NCBI GenBank assembly: GCA_963701075.1
Contig: OY969559.1
Location: 288,001-352,000, forward strand
Direction: 5' to 3'
DNA: 64,000 nt
Source of the DNA: an uncultured Nitrososphaerota archaeon
Lineage (GTDB): Archaea > Thermoproteota > Nitrososphaeria > Nitrososphaerales > Nitrosopumilaceae
The translations under genes were made by a program, and so were the position numbers. Positions 8,730-44,281 of this stretch are shown here, in pieces; position 1 is the first letter of the stretch; each line of letters starts with the position of its first letter. Below the pieces are notes generated by a model. It made no database searches, was not told the DNA's origin, and saw nothing but the letters and a program-made list of their open reading frames with translations.

Positions 8730-9371
8730 CTACTCGTATGTTGATTGTGACGATACGCCGGAGGGTGATGGAACTGATGGGAATCTGTCGCCGATCTGTT
8801 GTTCTGCAACTGCGGATGCTTCTTGTAGTATCTTGTCTGTCTCTTCGCTTGATACGTCGGAGTCCACATTGAAGTCTCCTCCTGCTAGCGAGTCCATCAT
8901 TAGTCCATTGAGTGTCTGGGTCATAGAGTTCAGTTCGGAATCTGCCTCTGGCATAAATCTTCCAAGGGATGATTTGAGTCCCTTCATTGTAGACATTGCA
9001 GGAGCTATTGCTACCATTGCGTCTCCTAAGTCGTGTATTGTTGTTAGACGTAATTGTACTTGCTCTAGTGCCATTCGGGCATTTCCTAGCATCTTTGTGA
9101 CCTTTCTTATCTCGGCAAGCTCATTGGACAGAACTCTGCTTGTGCTCGCATCGTGCTGTTGCATGGCGGTTACGATTCGCTTGAAAAGCTGTTCATCTCT
9201 TTGTCTCAGCTTTGTCAGCATAGAATCCATCTTCGATATTTGACCCTGTAATTTGTTCACAGCGCCCTCAATTCTAGGTTTGAGTGCTCCCTGTGGTTTT
9301 ACAGTTTCACGTAATTTTTCGGTTAAACCTGCAGACTCGGGACGAGTCCAGGTCTTATCGAAGCCGGTCAT
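8730..9371 (-). CDS. cdvB: ESCRT-III / CdvB-family cell division protein (Snf7)
   Basis: Snf7 helical pattern SNELAEIRKVTKMLGNARMALEQVQLRLTT...KILQEASAVAE...FPSVP. Confidence 0.92.
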   Translation of the reverse strand: MTGFDKTWTRPESAGLTEKLRETVKPQGALKPRIEGAVNKLQGQISKMDSMLTKLRQRDEQLFKRIVTAMQQHDASTSRVLSNELAEIRKVTKMLGNARMALEQVQLRLTTIHDLGDAMVAIAPAMSTMKGLKSSLGRFMPEADSELNSMTQTLNGLMMDSLAGGDFNVDSDVSSEETDKILQEASAVAEQQIGDRFPSVPSPSGVSSQSTYE

Positions 9372-9391
9372 GGTGGCTAGTTTGAAAGTTA

Positions 9392-9412
9392 GTTCTTAAT
9401 TGCCGGTGTATA
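9392..9412 (-). promoter_or_regulatory. BRE/TATA-type promoter of cdvB (TACACCGGCAATTAAGAAC)
   Basis: AATTAA lies 25-30 nt upstream of the ATG; 17/21 identical to the motif upstream of the other cdvB paralogue, at the same spacing. Confidence 0.65.
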
Positions 9413-9446
9413 TTATCGTCAACTTCAGGCTAAATTAAGCTCACAA

Positions 9447-10764
9447 TCTTCTGTCAAATCTCTGTTGCAGGTATTACGATATGTATGGTAATGATAACAT
9501 AACCAGACTCTTTTGTTTGTTGTTCTGCCCAACACATACATACAGAAATGACTTCCATTGCAATCCAATCTGTTAAACAGCGTCACGGTATTAATGATCG
9601 TAAAGTTATCAACTTTTTGGAGATATTCAGATACATGGTAAATCACAGTATCAGGATTGGATTGCAAAATAATTGCTCTACAATGAAAAAGCTTTGCATG
9701 TTATCTTATCATGAACTTAAACAATATGATATCCCAAGCTACTACAAACTATGTGCCATATCAAAGGCAGCTGGGATCCTAGCATCAAGGAATAAATCAA
9801 TTAAACGTGGTTATCCGGTCAAGAATCCATATATGAAAAAACCAGTACTTGTTTCATGTTACGGATTCAAGTACCAAGATGGAACCCTAAAGATTCCTCT
9901 TGGAGACAGAACGTATCTTGATGTATCATTAAATCATTATTGTAAGGAAATTTTATCAGAAGATCCTCAAATCAAAATCAGATCCTTTACACTTACTGCC
10001 AGTCATATCAGCATATCATATTCAAAAGAGATCACTCAAATCAAATGTGATAGTACTGTAGGAATTGATAGGAATCTTGGAAATCTTACCCTTGGTAACT
10101 GTACCAAGGTAATTCAGTTTGACCTTTCAAAGACTATACAAATTGCTGAAAACACAAAATCAATCTATTCCAGTTTCAAACGTAATGATTGCAGAATCAG
10201 AAAGAAAATTTATTCCAAGCATGGAAAGAGGAGAAAGAATAGAGTAGATCAGATCTTGCATAAAGTTTCAAAGACTGTTGTTGAGTATGTGATAACGAAC
10301 AAAACAGCTCTGGTGTTTGAAGATATCAGGCATATTAGAAAATTATATCAGAAAGGCAATGGACAAGGAAGAGAATATCGTGGAAGGATGAATGGTTGGT
10401 CATTTTCAGAAATAAAAAGACAGATAGAATACAAGTCAAGATGGAAAGGTGTTCCAATCATTCAGTTATCAAAAAAGGAAACAATGGGTACAAGTTCACG
10501 CTGTCCTATATGTGGGGAGAGACTCCGAAAGGACATGCAAACGAGGAACTTGTCATGTGATGTTTGTAAGAAGAGATGGGATCGTGATGTTGTCGCAGTC
10601 ATGAACCAGTCTCTTCGAGGGTGGGTTAGGTTCGCTCATTCAAAAGGTCCTGCAGATGAAGCGATGATACAGGAACCTGGGTCTGTTGTCATAACAATAA
10701 CATCCCCAGTAATCCTGAGAGTCGATGCAGGAAAGTCGTGTCTTCAACAGGAGACGACAGAATC
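9447..10764 (+). mobile_element. tnpB-only element with imperfect TIRs and 9-bp direct repeats
   Basis: AGCTCACAA at 9438-9446 and 10765-10773. Left end TCTTCTGTCAAATCTCTGTTGCAG versus reverse-complemented right end GATTCTGTCGTCTCCTGTTGAAG. Confidence 0.8.
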
Positions 10765-10825
10765 AGCTCACAAAATAAATCCAACAAGGTCGGTTCGAAA
10801 TCGTGTCAAGGATAGCGGTATTTGA
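9548..10825 (+). CDS. tnpB: RNA-guided endonuclease TnpB
   Basis: RuvC I GIDRNL, RuvC II VFEDIR, zinc finger CPICG...CDVC, RuvC III DRDVVA; catalytic D/E/D intact. Confidence 0.92.
   Translation: MTSIAIQSVKQRHGINDRKVINFLEIFRYMVNHSIRIGLQNNCSTMKKLCMLSYHELKQYDIPSYYKLCAISKAAGILASRNKSIKRGYPVKNPYMKKPVLVSCYGFKYQDGTLKIPLGDRTYLDVSLNHYCKEILSEDPQIKIRSFTLTASHISISYSKEITQIKCDSTVGIDRNLGNLTLGNCTKVIQFDLSKTIQIAENTKSIYSSFKRNDCRIRKKIYSKHGKRRKNRVDQILHKVSKTVVEYVITNKTALVFEDIRHIRKLYQKGNGQGREYRGRMNGWSFSEIKRQIEYKSRWKGVPIIQLSKKETMGTSSRCPICGERLRKDMQTRNLSCDVCKKRWDRDVVAVMNQSLRGWVRFAHSKGPADEAMIQEPGSVVITITSPVILRVDAGKSCLQQETTESAHKINPTRSVRNRVKDSGI
10620..10785 (+). ncRNA. Predicted omegaRNA (reRNA) scaffold plus guide of TnpB, overlapping the tnpB 3' end
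   Basis: Nested stems TCCTGCA 10648-10654 / TGCAGGA 10726-10732 and CAGGA..CTGGG / CCCAG..TCCTG; hairpin GTCGT...ACGAC 10735-10758; position typical for TnpB RNAs; boundaries approximate. Confidence 0.6.
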
Positions 10826-11558
10826 TTCTGGTCTGGGTTCCCTTTCCATAATAAAACCAATTCAAAAAAAGATCAAGACTGAGATTATCTATTTTGCTGA
10901 TCAGGACAATTTTCCATATGGCACAAAATCTACTAGCAAGTTAAGAAAGATTATCAAGTCAACCATTAGAAAATTGGAAGAAAAATTTGAACCAGATTTG
11001 ATAGTGATTGCTTCAAATACACCTTCACTTTTGCTAAATCCCAAAAAACAATCAAAAATTTTAGGGGTTTATCCACCATTAGAAGATGCGGTAGAGAAGA
11101 CAATTACAAATTCAATAGCAGTTCTTGCCACCAAATCAGTTGTTGAAAGTAAAGAACTAGAAAATTACATCAAAAAACAAGTTCCCAAAAGAATTAGAGT
11201 GATTAAAATTAACGCGTCGTCACTTGTAGATCTCGTAGAATCTGGAAAGTTTATTTCTAAAAAAGAATTGTGTAAAAAAAAGATTAGAGCAATCCTACAA
11301 CTAATACAAAAGGAGAGAGTTGATGTGGTAACCTTGTCTAGTACACACCTTCCATTTCTTCTGCCAATGTTAAAGGAGATTTTTCCTAATGTAACATTCC
11401 TTGATCCAGCAGATGCTGTAGCCGATAAGATTGCAACATTACTACATGGTAAGAAGGAAAGTAGGTACAAACTAAAGATCTTTGCCTCTGGCAATACCAC
11501 TACTTTTCAAAAAAAGTTACAAAAATTGGGAATTAAAAACAAAGTATTTCCGCTATGA
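10803..11558 (+). CDS. murI: Glutamate racemase family protein (both catalytic Cys replaced by Ser)
   Basis: IAVFDSGLG, ADQDNFPYGTK, VIASNT, LSSTHLP. Confidence 0.85.
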   Translation: MSRIAVFDSGLGSLSIIKPIQKKIKTEIIYFADQDNFPYGTKSTSKLRKIIKSTIRKLEEKFEPDLIVIASNTPSLLLNPKKQSKILGVYPPLEDAVEKTITNSIAVLATKSVVESKELENYIKKQVPKRIRVIKINASSLVDLVESGKFISKKELCKKKIRAILQLIQKERVDVVTLSSTHLPFLLPMLKEIFPNVTFLDPADAVADKIATLLHGKKESRYKLKIFASGNTTTFQKKLQKLGIKNKVFPL

Positions 11559-43897: not shown

Positions 43898-44281
43898 TTA
43901 CAAATTACTAGTTTTCTTTTTTATATTTTCTATAATTTCCAATTTTCTTGTGATATCCATGTTTGGTTCCATGGTAACATAGACTGTTCTGTGTTTTGGA
44001 TAGACAACTATCTGCGTAACCTTTTGGCGTTCTATATGTACATAGTTGACAGAACCTAAACTCCTGTCAAATTGCTTTCGGATCTTTCTTCTTATGGCTA
44101 CCTGTTTACAAAAATGTTCTTCCTCTTTTTGTGACTTGAGGGATGTTTTACCTTCTTTCATTATGGCTTCTGATATGTTCCCTTTAAGATCTATAATTGC
44201 AGCAAACCGCATCATTGGATCTAGTTCTAAGATATCCTCTACTATGGGAAGTAGGTTTATCTTGTGATTATTCTTTTTCAA
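43898..44281 (-). CDS. Roadblock/longin-like small protein (DUF6659-like)
   Basis: ILELDPMMRFAAIID; FDRSLGSVNYVHIERQKV. Confidence 0.7.
   Translation of the reverse strand: MKKNNHKINLLPIVEDILELDPMMRFAAIIDLKGNISEAIMKEGKTSLKSQKEEEHFCKQVAIRRKIRKQFDRSLGSVNYVHIERQKVTQIVVYPKHRTVYVTMEPNMDITRKLEIIENIKKKTSNL

Follow-up and report, generated by a model that had tools for sequence, protein, structure and literature searches.

The present analysis concerns an element carrying a tnpB gene in a window of 64,000 nucleotides from the genome of an uncultured Nitrososphaerota archaeon of the ammonia-oxidising type (GenBank assembly GCA_963701075.1, contig OY969559.1, positions 288,001 to 352,000 of the forward strand; positions are those of this window unless another sequence is named). 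Probably, this element is a transposase-less cassette of tnpB and a guide-RNA scaffold enclosed by the terminal inverted repeats (TIRs) of an archaeal IS6-family transposon, which was mobilised in trans and whose guide would be directed to the empty allele of its own insertion site. It occupies 9447-10764 on the plus strand and comprises, from left to right, the left TIR, tnpB, the scaffold and the right TIR. An initial annotation had described a tnpB gene with the RuvC D/E/D residues in a unit of 1318 bp with imperfect inverted ends, direct repeats on either side and no transposase inside; this anatomy is confirmed.

Insertion site and architecture of the cassette

The 9-nt word AGCTCACAA is present at 9438-9446 and again at 10765-10773, immediately on either side of the 1318-bp unit. 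When the element region was compared with 41 related genomes, the matches of the left and the right flank turned out to overlap by exactly 9 nt in the same-genus genomes. All nine published same-genus genomes aligned across the junction lack the element and possess an empty spacer between a cdvB-like gene and a racemase gene with a single copy of the word, which reads exactly AGCTCACAA in six of them and deviates by one letter in the other three (two unpublished genomes, G019 and G011, look alike and were not used for these counts). The overlap of the flank matches together with the single copy of the word in the empty alleles shows that the repeat of AGCTCACAA is not due to chance, and the empty cdvB-murI allele envisaged by the initial annotation is present in all nine aligned published relatives.

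An orthologous copy of the element occupies the same spacer in L190, a metagenome contig. There, the duplication is GCTCACAA and comprises 8 bp, and the tips of the element are intact (GG...CC). As read from the alignment with L190, both tips of the window copy are mutated, the left one being TC instead of GG and the right one TCA instead of CC. The extra A of the right tip furnishes the ninth matching letter of the repeat, and the 9-mer of the window is best read as an 8-bp duplication (left copy of GCTCACAA at 9439-9446, right copy at 10766-10773) plus an insertion or deletion of 1 nt at the mutated right tip. A staggered cut of 9 bp at the window site was considered and rejected because the orthologous site in L190 displays an 8-bp duplication next to intact tips. 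Of the 9-bp target duplication claimed initially, the duplication itself is borne out by the empty sites, and its length has to be corrected to 8 bp. Comparison of occupied and empty alleles shows the element, as judged from these alignments, to be an insertion between the CdvB-like gene and the racemase gene which duplicated the 8 bp GCTCACAA.

The tnpB gene (9548-10825, plus strand, 425 aa) is the sole long open reading frame (ORF) inside the element, and no transposase ORF is found within 9447-10764. It lacks a stop codon inside the element and extends 61 nt beyond the right end, so that its last 20 codons are contributed by the flank and its terminal part, stop included, shares sequence with the beginning of the racemase gene (GTG start at 10803). 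The encoded protein passes the cut-off of the Pfam model Cas12f1-like_TNB (51.2 bits, cut-off 26.3), and a profile of its paralogues matches solved TnpB/Cas12f chains with E values of 1e-14 to 1e-9. Residues D174, E258 and D345/D347 as well as the zinc-finger cysteines C319, C322, C337 and C340 are invariant in seven of seven aligned paralogues. We take the D/E/D residues to be the catalytic ones, in part on the basis of how the DRDXN motif has been described. At residues 345-353 (10590-10600) the window copy reads DRDVV and shares the form DRDxV with paralogues B and C, and paralogues D to H harbour DRDxN; DRDXN is the motif reported for typical TnpBs (PMC10691335).

The reading frames of tnpB copies B and H of this genome likewise continue past their right ends, and those of copies F and G stop within the TIR. 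About 40-70 nt inside the left end (9484-9512 in the window), all subfamilies display a conserved block reading ...ATAACC or AATTACC followed by CTTTT, which may represent a tnpB promoter or an inner transposase-binding site.

Terminal repeats shared with IS6-type transposons

The ends of the window element are imperfect inverted repeats which read TCTTCTGTCAAATCTCTGTTG on the left and, as reverse complement, GATTCTGTCGTCTCCTGTTG on the right; both contain TTCTGTC and TGTTG, with one insertion or deletion between the two ends. The left TIR (9447-9467, plus strand) is degenerate, with the tip TC where the family has GG, and the right TIR (10745-10764, minus strand) carries the mutated tip ...GAATCA compared to ...GAACC in L190. 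In this genome tblastn detects nine tnpB loci with 32-47% identity to the window copy; two are broken. Five of the loci (A, C, D, F and G) possess exact flanking repeats and a sixth (H) one matching in 7 of 8 positions; none was found at loci B, E and I. Copies F, G and H have retained near-perfect 24-nt TIRs (GGTTCTGTCAACTTGATGGCTCAT) and are flanked by 8-bp duplications, which are exact in F and G and 7/8 in H. In copies C and D the ends have diverged, yet the 8-bp duplications are exact.

The genome is available as one contig and is 94.96% complete, a figure against which the absence of a given type of transposase has to be read. A profile search of it yields no match to Y1_Tnp and none to Resolvase, the model for serine enzymes, and exactly one gene over the cut-off of DDE_Tnp_IS240. 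The latter encodes a protein of 385 aa in which zinc-finger motifs precede the DDE domain and which attains 130 bits with the NCBIfam IS6 model (cut-off 125) and 66.6 bits with Pfam DDE_Tnp_IS240. Three fragments of further copies of this DDE transposase are present as well. Complete DDE transposons were delimited in two other genomes. That of G045 (L053:7412-10144) measures 2733 bp, has TIRs and an exact 8-bp duplication (ATAAAACA) and carries, besides the transposase gene, a passenger ORF of 261 aa with membrane-like segments. The transposase gene is preceded, on the opposite strand, by a conserved 45-aa ORF of ribbon-helix-helix appearance, a designation which is a reading of the sequence, the homologous ORF of this genome being without a Pfam match. 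The DDE transposon of G014 (L052:8164-10499) measures 2336 bp and carries a different passenger of 295 aa.

Between the TIRs of tnpB copies F, G and H, on the one hand, and the ends of the G045 and G014 transposons as well as of a DDE remnant in this genome, on the other, 21-23 of 24 positions agree. These shared ends provide the strongest evidence, from sequence comparison, that the tnpB cassettes use an IS6-type transposase, and they supply the DDE enzyme with matching ends for which the initial annotation had proposed to look. In G014, the genome holding one of the two DDE transposons, three tnpB copies are 96.7-97.6% identical, each being flanked by its own 7-8-bp duplication, which points to their having moved recently.

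To assess the breadth of the cassette clade, stretches encoding relatives were surveyed in one genome per species, and the best 80 of 416 were evaluated; together with an independent metagenome set this amounts to 160 related loci. The best 80 of the 416 originate from Nitrosopumilaceae, Nitrosotalea, Nitrososphaera, Bathyarchaeia and one metagenome-assembled genome of Methanomethylicota. Both flanks are present in 69 of the 80 genome loci. The right-end motif GGTTCTGTYAA is found within two mismatches in 54 of these 69 and in 46 of 61 metagenome loci; in the genome loci the distance between the end of the tblastn match and the right tip is mostly 10-92 nt. Both end motifs are recognisable within two mismatches in 25 of the 69 genome loci; eight of these 25 have exact flanking repeats of at least 7 bp (8 bp in seven cases), compared to 0 of 600 mismatched-pair controls. 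In a second test which dispenses with the left TIR, the 8-mer to the right of the right end was sought within 300 nt upstream of tnpB. It recurs exactly in 30 of 85 genome loci (copies of this genome included) and in 14 of 46 metagenome loci, that is in 44 of 131 evaluable loci, and never in the control windows of either set. A few sites show a duplication of 7 or 9 bp instead of 8. Homologous copies thus exhibit conserved GGTTCTGT... ends and variable 8-bp duplications, as the initial annotation had anticipated. Its proposal of a non-autonomous tnpB element with IS6-like ends which is moved in trans by a DDE enzyme is supported by these clade-wide duplications together with the shared ends. 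Judged from its sequence, the window element almost certainly owes its insertion to an IS6-type transposase whose gene lies elsewhere.

A different DDE family which has GG tips and makes 8-bp duplications, for instance one of IS1595 type, might own the ends and provide the enzyme which moves the cassette. The DDE protein of this genome indeed also matches the N-terminal zinc-domain model of IS1/IS1595 at 31 bits and IS1 at 64 bits, the latter below the cut-off. Yet the transposons with matching ends encode a protein which exceeds the NCBIfam IS6 cut-off and is recognised by DDE_Tnp_IS240, DDE_Tnp_IS1595 gives only a match of 18.5 bits in this genome (cut-off 27), and GG tips, CTGT core and 8-bp duplication agree with the description of IS6 elements (PMC7986276). 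We therefore regard this possibility as improbable.

Far less credible still is an ordinary IS200/IS605 (IS1341-group) or IS607 element moved by a Y1 or serine transposase and accompanied by repeats only incidentally. TnpB-only elements are usually classed with IS200/IS605, and Krupovic et al. (2019) file thaumarchaeal insertion sequences under IS200/IS605 and other families, with no remark on the ends where the former are listed (PMC6563490). The target duplication proven by the empty sites, the recurrence of TIRs and 8-bp duplications across the clade with no control match, and the lack of any Y1_Tnp or Resolvase match in a 95%-complete genome already contradict such an origin. Hence, the usual hosts of TnpB do not fit, as had been argued initially from the TIRs and the duplication.

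Several observations weigh against an IS6-type transposase acting on a TnpB cassette in trans. The TIRs of the window element have little more than the TTCTGTC core and a few other letters in common with the ends of the DDE transposons, and they lack GG/CC tips. For the only intact DDE gene of this genome, one end has diverged and a left end was not found. Among 30 DDE loci, no inverted repeat above chance was detected within 900 nt upstream and 500 nt downstream, and with wide flanks transposon ends could be located at only two of three DDE loci examined; the lack of close-in repeats is attributable to the length of these elements, which carry passenger genes and have their ends farther out. 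Left ends of the tnpB cassettes are poorly kept, the motif being found within two mismatches in only 28 of 69 genome loci. A DDE gene resides beside tnpB in only 1 of 80 genome loci (4-kb flanks) and in 0 of 80 metagenome loci (1.2-kb flanks), which at the same time characterises the cassettes as non-autonomous. As regards co-occurrence, DDE homologues are encoded by 75 of 151 family genomes sampled and the tnpB clade is present in 19 of 201; 13 of these 19, including the unpublished genome G011, hold a DDE homologue. This enrichment is weak and, as kin are not independent, too weak to be used. The window TnpB scores 84.9 bits with the NCBIfam model guided_TnpB and thereby remains under the cut-off of 100, which paralogue F exceeds with 104.3 bits. 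Finally, IS6 elements are known to move replicatively via cointegrates (Varani et al. 2021, PMC7986276), so that no gap left by excision would await repair by TnpB, and simple insertions inside a single chromosome become more difficult to account for.

Further traces of the family are scattered over the genome (G000). A mini-element of 55 bp at G000:C1:113330-113384, consisting of a left-type and a right-type end back to back and devoid of a clear duplication, may be a deletion derivative resembling a miniature inverted-repeat transposable element (MITE). Outside the nine tblastn loci, a solo left-end remnant (G000:C1:220017-220070) shows 78% identity with the corresponding end of the element in the window, and a decayed tnpB 3' end with a right TIR is present at G000:C1:1159800-1160195. 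Within the window, a 12-nt stretch at about 44045-44056 (G000:C1:332056, minus strand) is identical to the tip motif of the TIRs, which may be due to chance or mark another solo end. A cluster of decayed C-terminal fragments of IS6-type transposase genes, together with a TIR (G000:C1:1819900-1820570; L009:2784-3406), adjoins the only intact DDE gene and looks like the outcome of repeated insertions at one spot.

Predicted guide-RNA scaffold, flanking motif and proposed spread of the occupied allele

Alignment of the last 140 nt of 36 elements reveals near-invariant nucleotide blocks, though the proteins are only 40-60% identical. RNAalifold predicts 15 base pairs in three helices, with compensatory double changes in 12 of the 15. 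Of the alignment cells concerned, 96.8% are paired, compared to 27-47% with the partners slid, and 111 are doubly changed, compared to 10-27; none of 500 shuffles reaches the observed values. In the window, to which positions were transferred manually via the first alignment row, the core of the fold extends over 10648-10732 (plus strand), and all three helices are retained: 10648-10654 with 10726-10732, 10670-10674 with 10713-10717, and 10677-10679 with 10707-10709. A terminal hairpin follows at 10735-10758 (plus strand; 10735-10742 with 10751-10758, one mismatch), the 3' arm of which is the inner part of the right TIR. Its arms change together between subfamilies, as judged by eye; folding energies support it modestly (median z -1.27; z under -2 for 7 of 36 sequences), and it was not relied on. 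A scan of 9300-11000 against Rfam gave only a chance match of 17 bits and no known RNA family. The covariation shows that the last ~120 nt of the elements, up to the right tip, encode what by this criterion is a structured RNA. We read it as an omega-RNA scaffold which ends at the very tip of the right TIR. From the end of the scaffold and the known arrangement of TnpB systems, the template of the guide part is predicted at 10765-10785 (plus strand), comprising the duplication and adjacent flank.

A second indication comes from the nucleotides 5' of the left duplication. When sites were pooled and made unique by their 8-mer (n=39), TR (R being a purine) directly precedes the left duplication in 32 of 39 sites; on the mirror side this holds for 10 of 39 (Fisher p ~1e-6); the most prominent trinucleotides are TTG (11) and TTA (9), and in the metagenome set alone all 13 of 13 sites conform. 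Such a one-sided motif would not be expected from a symmetric target preference of a DDE enzyme. It fits the sequence expected of a transposon-adjacent motif (TAM), in which case the empty allele would read TAM, 8-bp word and flank and would correspond exactly to the predicted guide. In the window this position (9436-9438, plus strand) reads TAA, compared to TTA in L190 and in seven of the nine aligned empty alleles. The T-to-A change at 9437 is shared by the window and G006, its sister with an empty allele; if TR is the TAM, such a TAA allele may resist cutting.

According to the proposed mechanism, the IS6-type transposase would bind the shared ends and mobilise the cassette in trans, an event in which the window copy, both tips being mutated, can probably no longer take part. 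Transcription would continue past the right tip into the flank, creating a guide composed of the duplication and the downstream sequence. With TR, mostly TTG or TTA, as TAM immediately 5' of the left duplication, the unoccupied allele would be recognised and cleaved by TnpB, which would favour copying of the cassette into it by recombination and hence its homing or retention.

The phylogeny of the occupied spacer bears on the last of these steps. The tree built from the CdvB-like flank joins the window and the empty G006 as sisters (support 99/98) within a clade of empty alleles and places L190 in the other clade (98/98), nested among four empty alleles. On this tree, vertical descent of the occupied site would need about five or more independent precise losses. 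Between the window and L190 the element is 86.8% identical and the flanks only 80.1% and 66.5%; the number of synonymous substitutions per synonymous site (dS) amounts to 0.44 for tnpB, 0.70 for the CdvB-like gene, and is saturated for the racemase gene. This distribution fits lateral spread of the occupied allele into empty ones, as far as can be judged from sequence. Homing guided by TnpB offers a natural mechanism for such spread, and plain homologous exchange may account for it as well.

Against homing stands the view that a single DDE insertion took place with tnpB as passive cargo, the presence in both the window and L190 being due to an ancient insertion followed by repeated precise deletions, or to homologous exchange of alleles. 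Both the window and its empty sister G006 read TAA instead of TTA at the presumed TAM, the tnpB dS of 0.44 is large and suggests that the element is old at this site, and its being lower than that of the flanks may in part reflect constraint at the RNA level; these points weaken the case for guided spread. In addition, contigs from four sequencing runs contain the occupied allele only and no joint across the element, so that no polymorphism is apparent; contigs can, however, miss a minority empty allele. On the other hand, vertical descent would demand the precise losses enumerated above, the element is more similar between the two genomes than its flanks are, and inert cargo hardly explains either the asymmetry of the TR motif or an intact covarying scaffold ending at the tip. 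We thus consider passive cargo unlikely, albeit as a rival to be taken seriously, and favour a cassette whose guide is directed to the empty allele.

More tentatively, the data may be extended to the family as a whole. It is conceivable, though we would not yet count on it, that cassettes of tnpB and omega RNA are a widespread cargo of a large undescribed group of archaeal IS6-type transposons in Nitrososphaerota, Bathyarchaeia and others, in which the right TIR, the binding site of the DDE transposase, doubles as the 3' end of the scaffold, the duplication created by this enzyme supplies the first 8 nt of the guide, the TR TAM decides which insertions persist, and the nuclease drives the cassette into empty alleles of related lineages even after the tips required for DDE movement have decayed; the two occupations of one spacer, on this view independent, would be an instance of this.

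The element has inserted 39 nt upstream of the racemase gene. This right neighbour (10803-11558, plus strand, 251 aa; murI-like) is assigned to the Asp/Glu racemase family by Pfam Asp_Glu_race (33.2 bits, cut-off 31). The left neighbour, a host gene outside the element like the former, is located at 8730-9371 on the minus strand and encodes a Snf7/ESCRT-III-like protein of CdvB type (213 aa), a name which is tentative as the Pfam Snf7 score of 19.7 bits is below the cut-off of 27.3. The insertion separates the racemase gene from the remaining upstream spacer, and the gene may depend on read-through from the element. Between the window (10803-11321) and L190 (L190:2460-2978) the racemase is only 57% identical at the protein level, compared to 93% for the CdvB-like gene across the element, which reflects either a striking difference in rate or a gene replacement. 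A co-conversion tract in the right intergenic flank (8 differences in ~27 nt compared to G006, 0 in 75 nt on the left) was considered and dropped as this spacer is hypervariable across the genus.

With regard to this neighbourhood, the window copy might have been domesticated, with an immobilised TnpB and its RNA acting on the host, for example on expression of the racemase gene. Its tips are mutated, yet the ORF and the RNA helices are intact, and the ORF runs through into the racemase start just downstream of the insertion. As the D/E/D residues of the nuclease are retained, all nine aligned relatives live without the element and no sign of regulation was found, we deem domestication very improbable.

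Relation to known systems and significance

Altae-Tran et al. (2023, PNAS) reported six DDE-associated branches of TnpB (DDE-1 to DDE-6), all with inverted terminal repeats, as well as solo TnpBs with nearly identical ends which they took to be moved by the respective transposases (PMC10691335). The window element resembles the former, according to the main text, in that TnpB is situated inside inverted terminal repeats, the 3' end of tnpB lies close to the end of the element (at most 250 bp) and the guide would derive from the flank. It resembles the latter in that the cassette shares its ends with transposase-bearing elements, which is read as trans mobilisation. The possibility raised in the initial annotation that this type of element might be undescribed therefore does not hold: DDE-mobilised non-autonomous TnpBs were published in 2023, and only the IS6 partner goes unnamed in the main texts. 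IS630 is the only family named in the main text of that study (PMC10691335), and a review of 2026 names ISL2, IS630 and IS1031 as DDE partners, adding that such partners are rare because cut-and-paste transposition leaves a break anyway (PMC13565253); as far as these main texts go, the IS6-type partner proposed here differs from all of them. A further difference from the DDE-associated branches is that the transposase almost never adjoins tnpB (1/80 and 0/80 loci), and a neighbour-based survey could miss the link for this reason. We found no paper linking TnpB to IS6, a link which supplementary tables may hold.

Classical IS6 elements are described by Varani et al. (2021, Mob DNA, PMC7986276) as single-gene elements of 700-890 bp which create an 8-bp duplication and whose short TIRs have GG tips and a cTGTt core. 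The clade and L190 share with IS6/IS26 the 8-bp duplication and the short TIRs with GG tips and CTGT core; in the window copy, which is likewise flanked by an 8-bp duplication, the CTGT core is kept and both tips are mutated. The partner transposase exceeds the NCBIfam IS6 cut-off and, like the long IS6 members, possesses an N-terminal zinc finger. Unlike the classical one-gene elements, the autonomous relatives comprise 2.3-2.7 kb and accommodate passenger genes and the small ribbon-helix-helix-like ORF, and unlike IS6/IS26 the cassette itself is devoid of a transposase. Among IS6 members the review counts just one with a passenger gene, two MITEs and no tnpB (PMC7986276).

With TnpB-only elements of the IS200/IS605 type (IS1341 group), the window element has the nuclease family in common, and in both cases, as far as the former have been described in the sources at hand, a scaffold overlapping the tnpB 3' end reaches up to the right boundary and a short motif is located upstream of the target on the left flank. 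IS200/IS605 elements have neither TIRs nor a target duplication and are moved as single strands by a Y1 transposase (PMC13565253, PMC10691335). Here, in contrast, TIRs and an 8-bp duplication are present, and the TAM-like motif is 8 bp away from the left end. A homing model for TnpB has been put forward by Meers et al. (2023, PMC10055086). Fanzor proteins, eukaryotic homologues of TnpB, have been found inside TIR transposons (Bao and Jurka 2013, PMC3627910) and thus likewise exemplify TnpB-type nucleases as passengers in DDE transposons with TIRs and target duplications. Their hosts are, by that description, eukaryotes and giant viruses and the transposons belong to other superfamilies, whereas the present protein, which has the ordinary size of a TnpB and a DRD motif, comes from an archaeon.

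From the proposed arrangement several testable predictions emerge, namely a TR TAM, a guide starting with the 8-bp duplication and a scaffold ending in the transposase-binding tip. Surveys of gene neighbourhoods miss transposase partners which act only in trans, and many archaeal elements filed as IS200/IS605 may be misclassified. TnpB is the ancestor of Cas12 and a compact tool for genome editing, and its accepted role is the restoration of IS200/IS605 and IS607 elements after their scarless excision. If TnpB thrives in IS6-type transposons, whose copying leaves no empty donor site behind, its benefit must be a different one, and homing into empty alleles or chromosome copies is a likely candidate. 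Should the tentative extension to the entire transposon group prove true, RNA-guided homing would be at the service of a DDE transposon that moves replicatively, an outcome not foreseen by the excision-repair rationale for TnpB.

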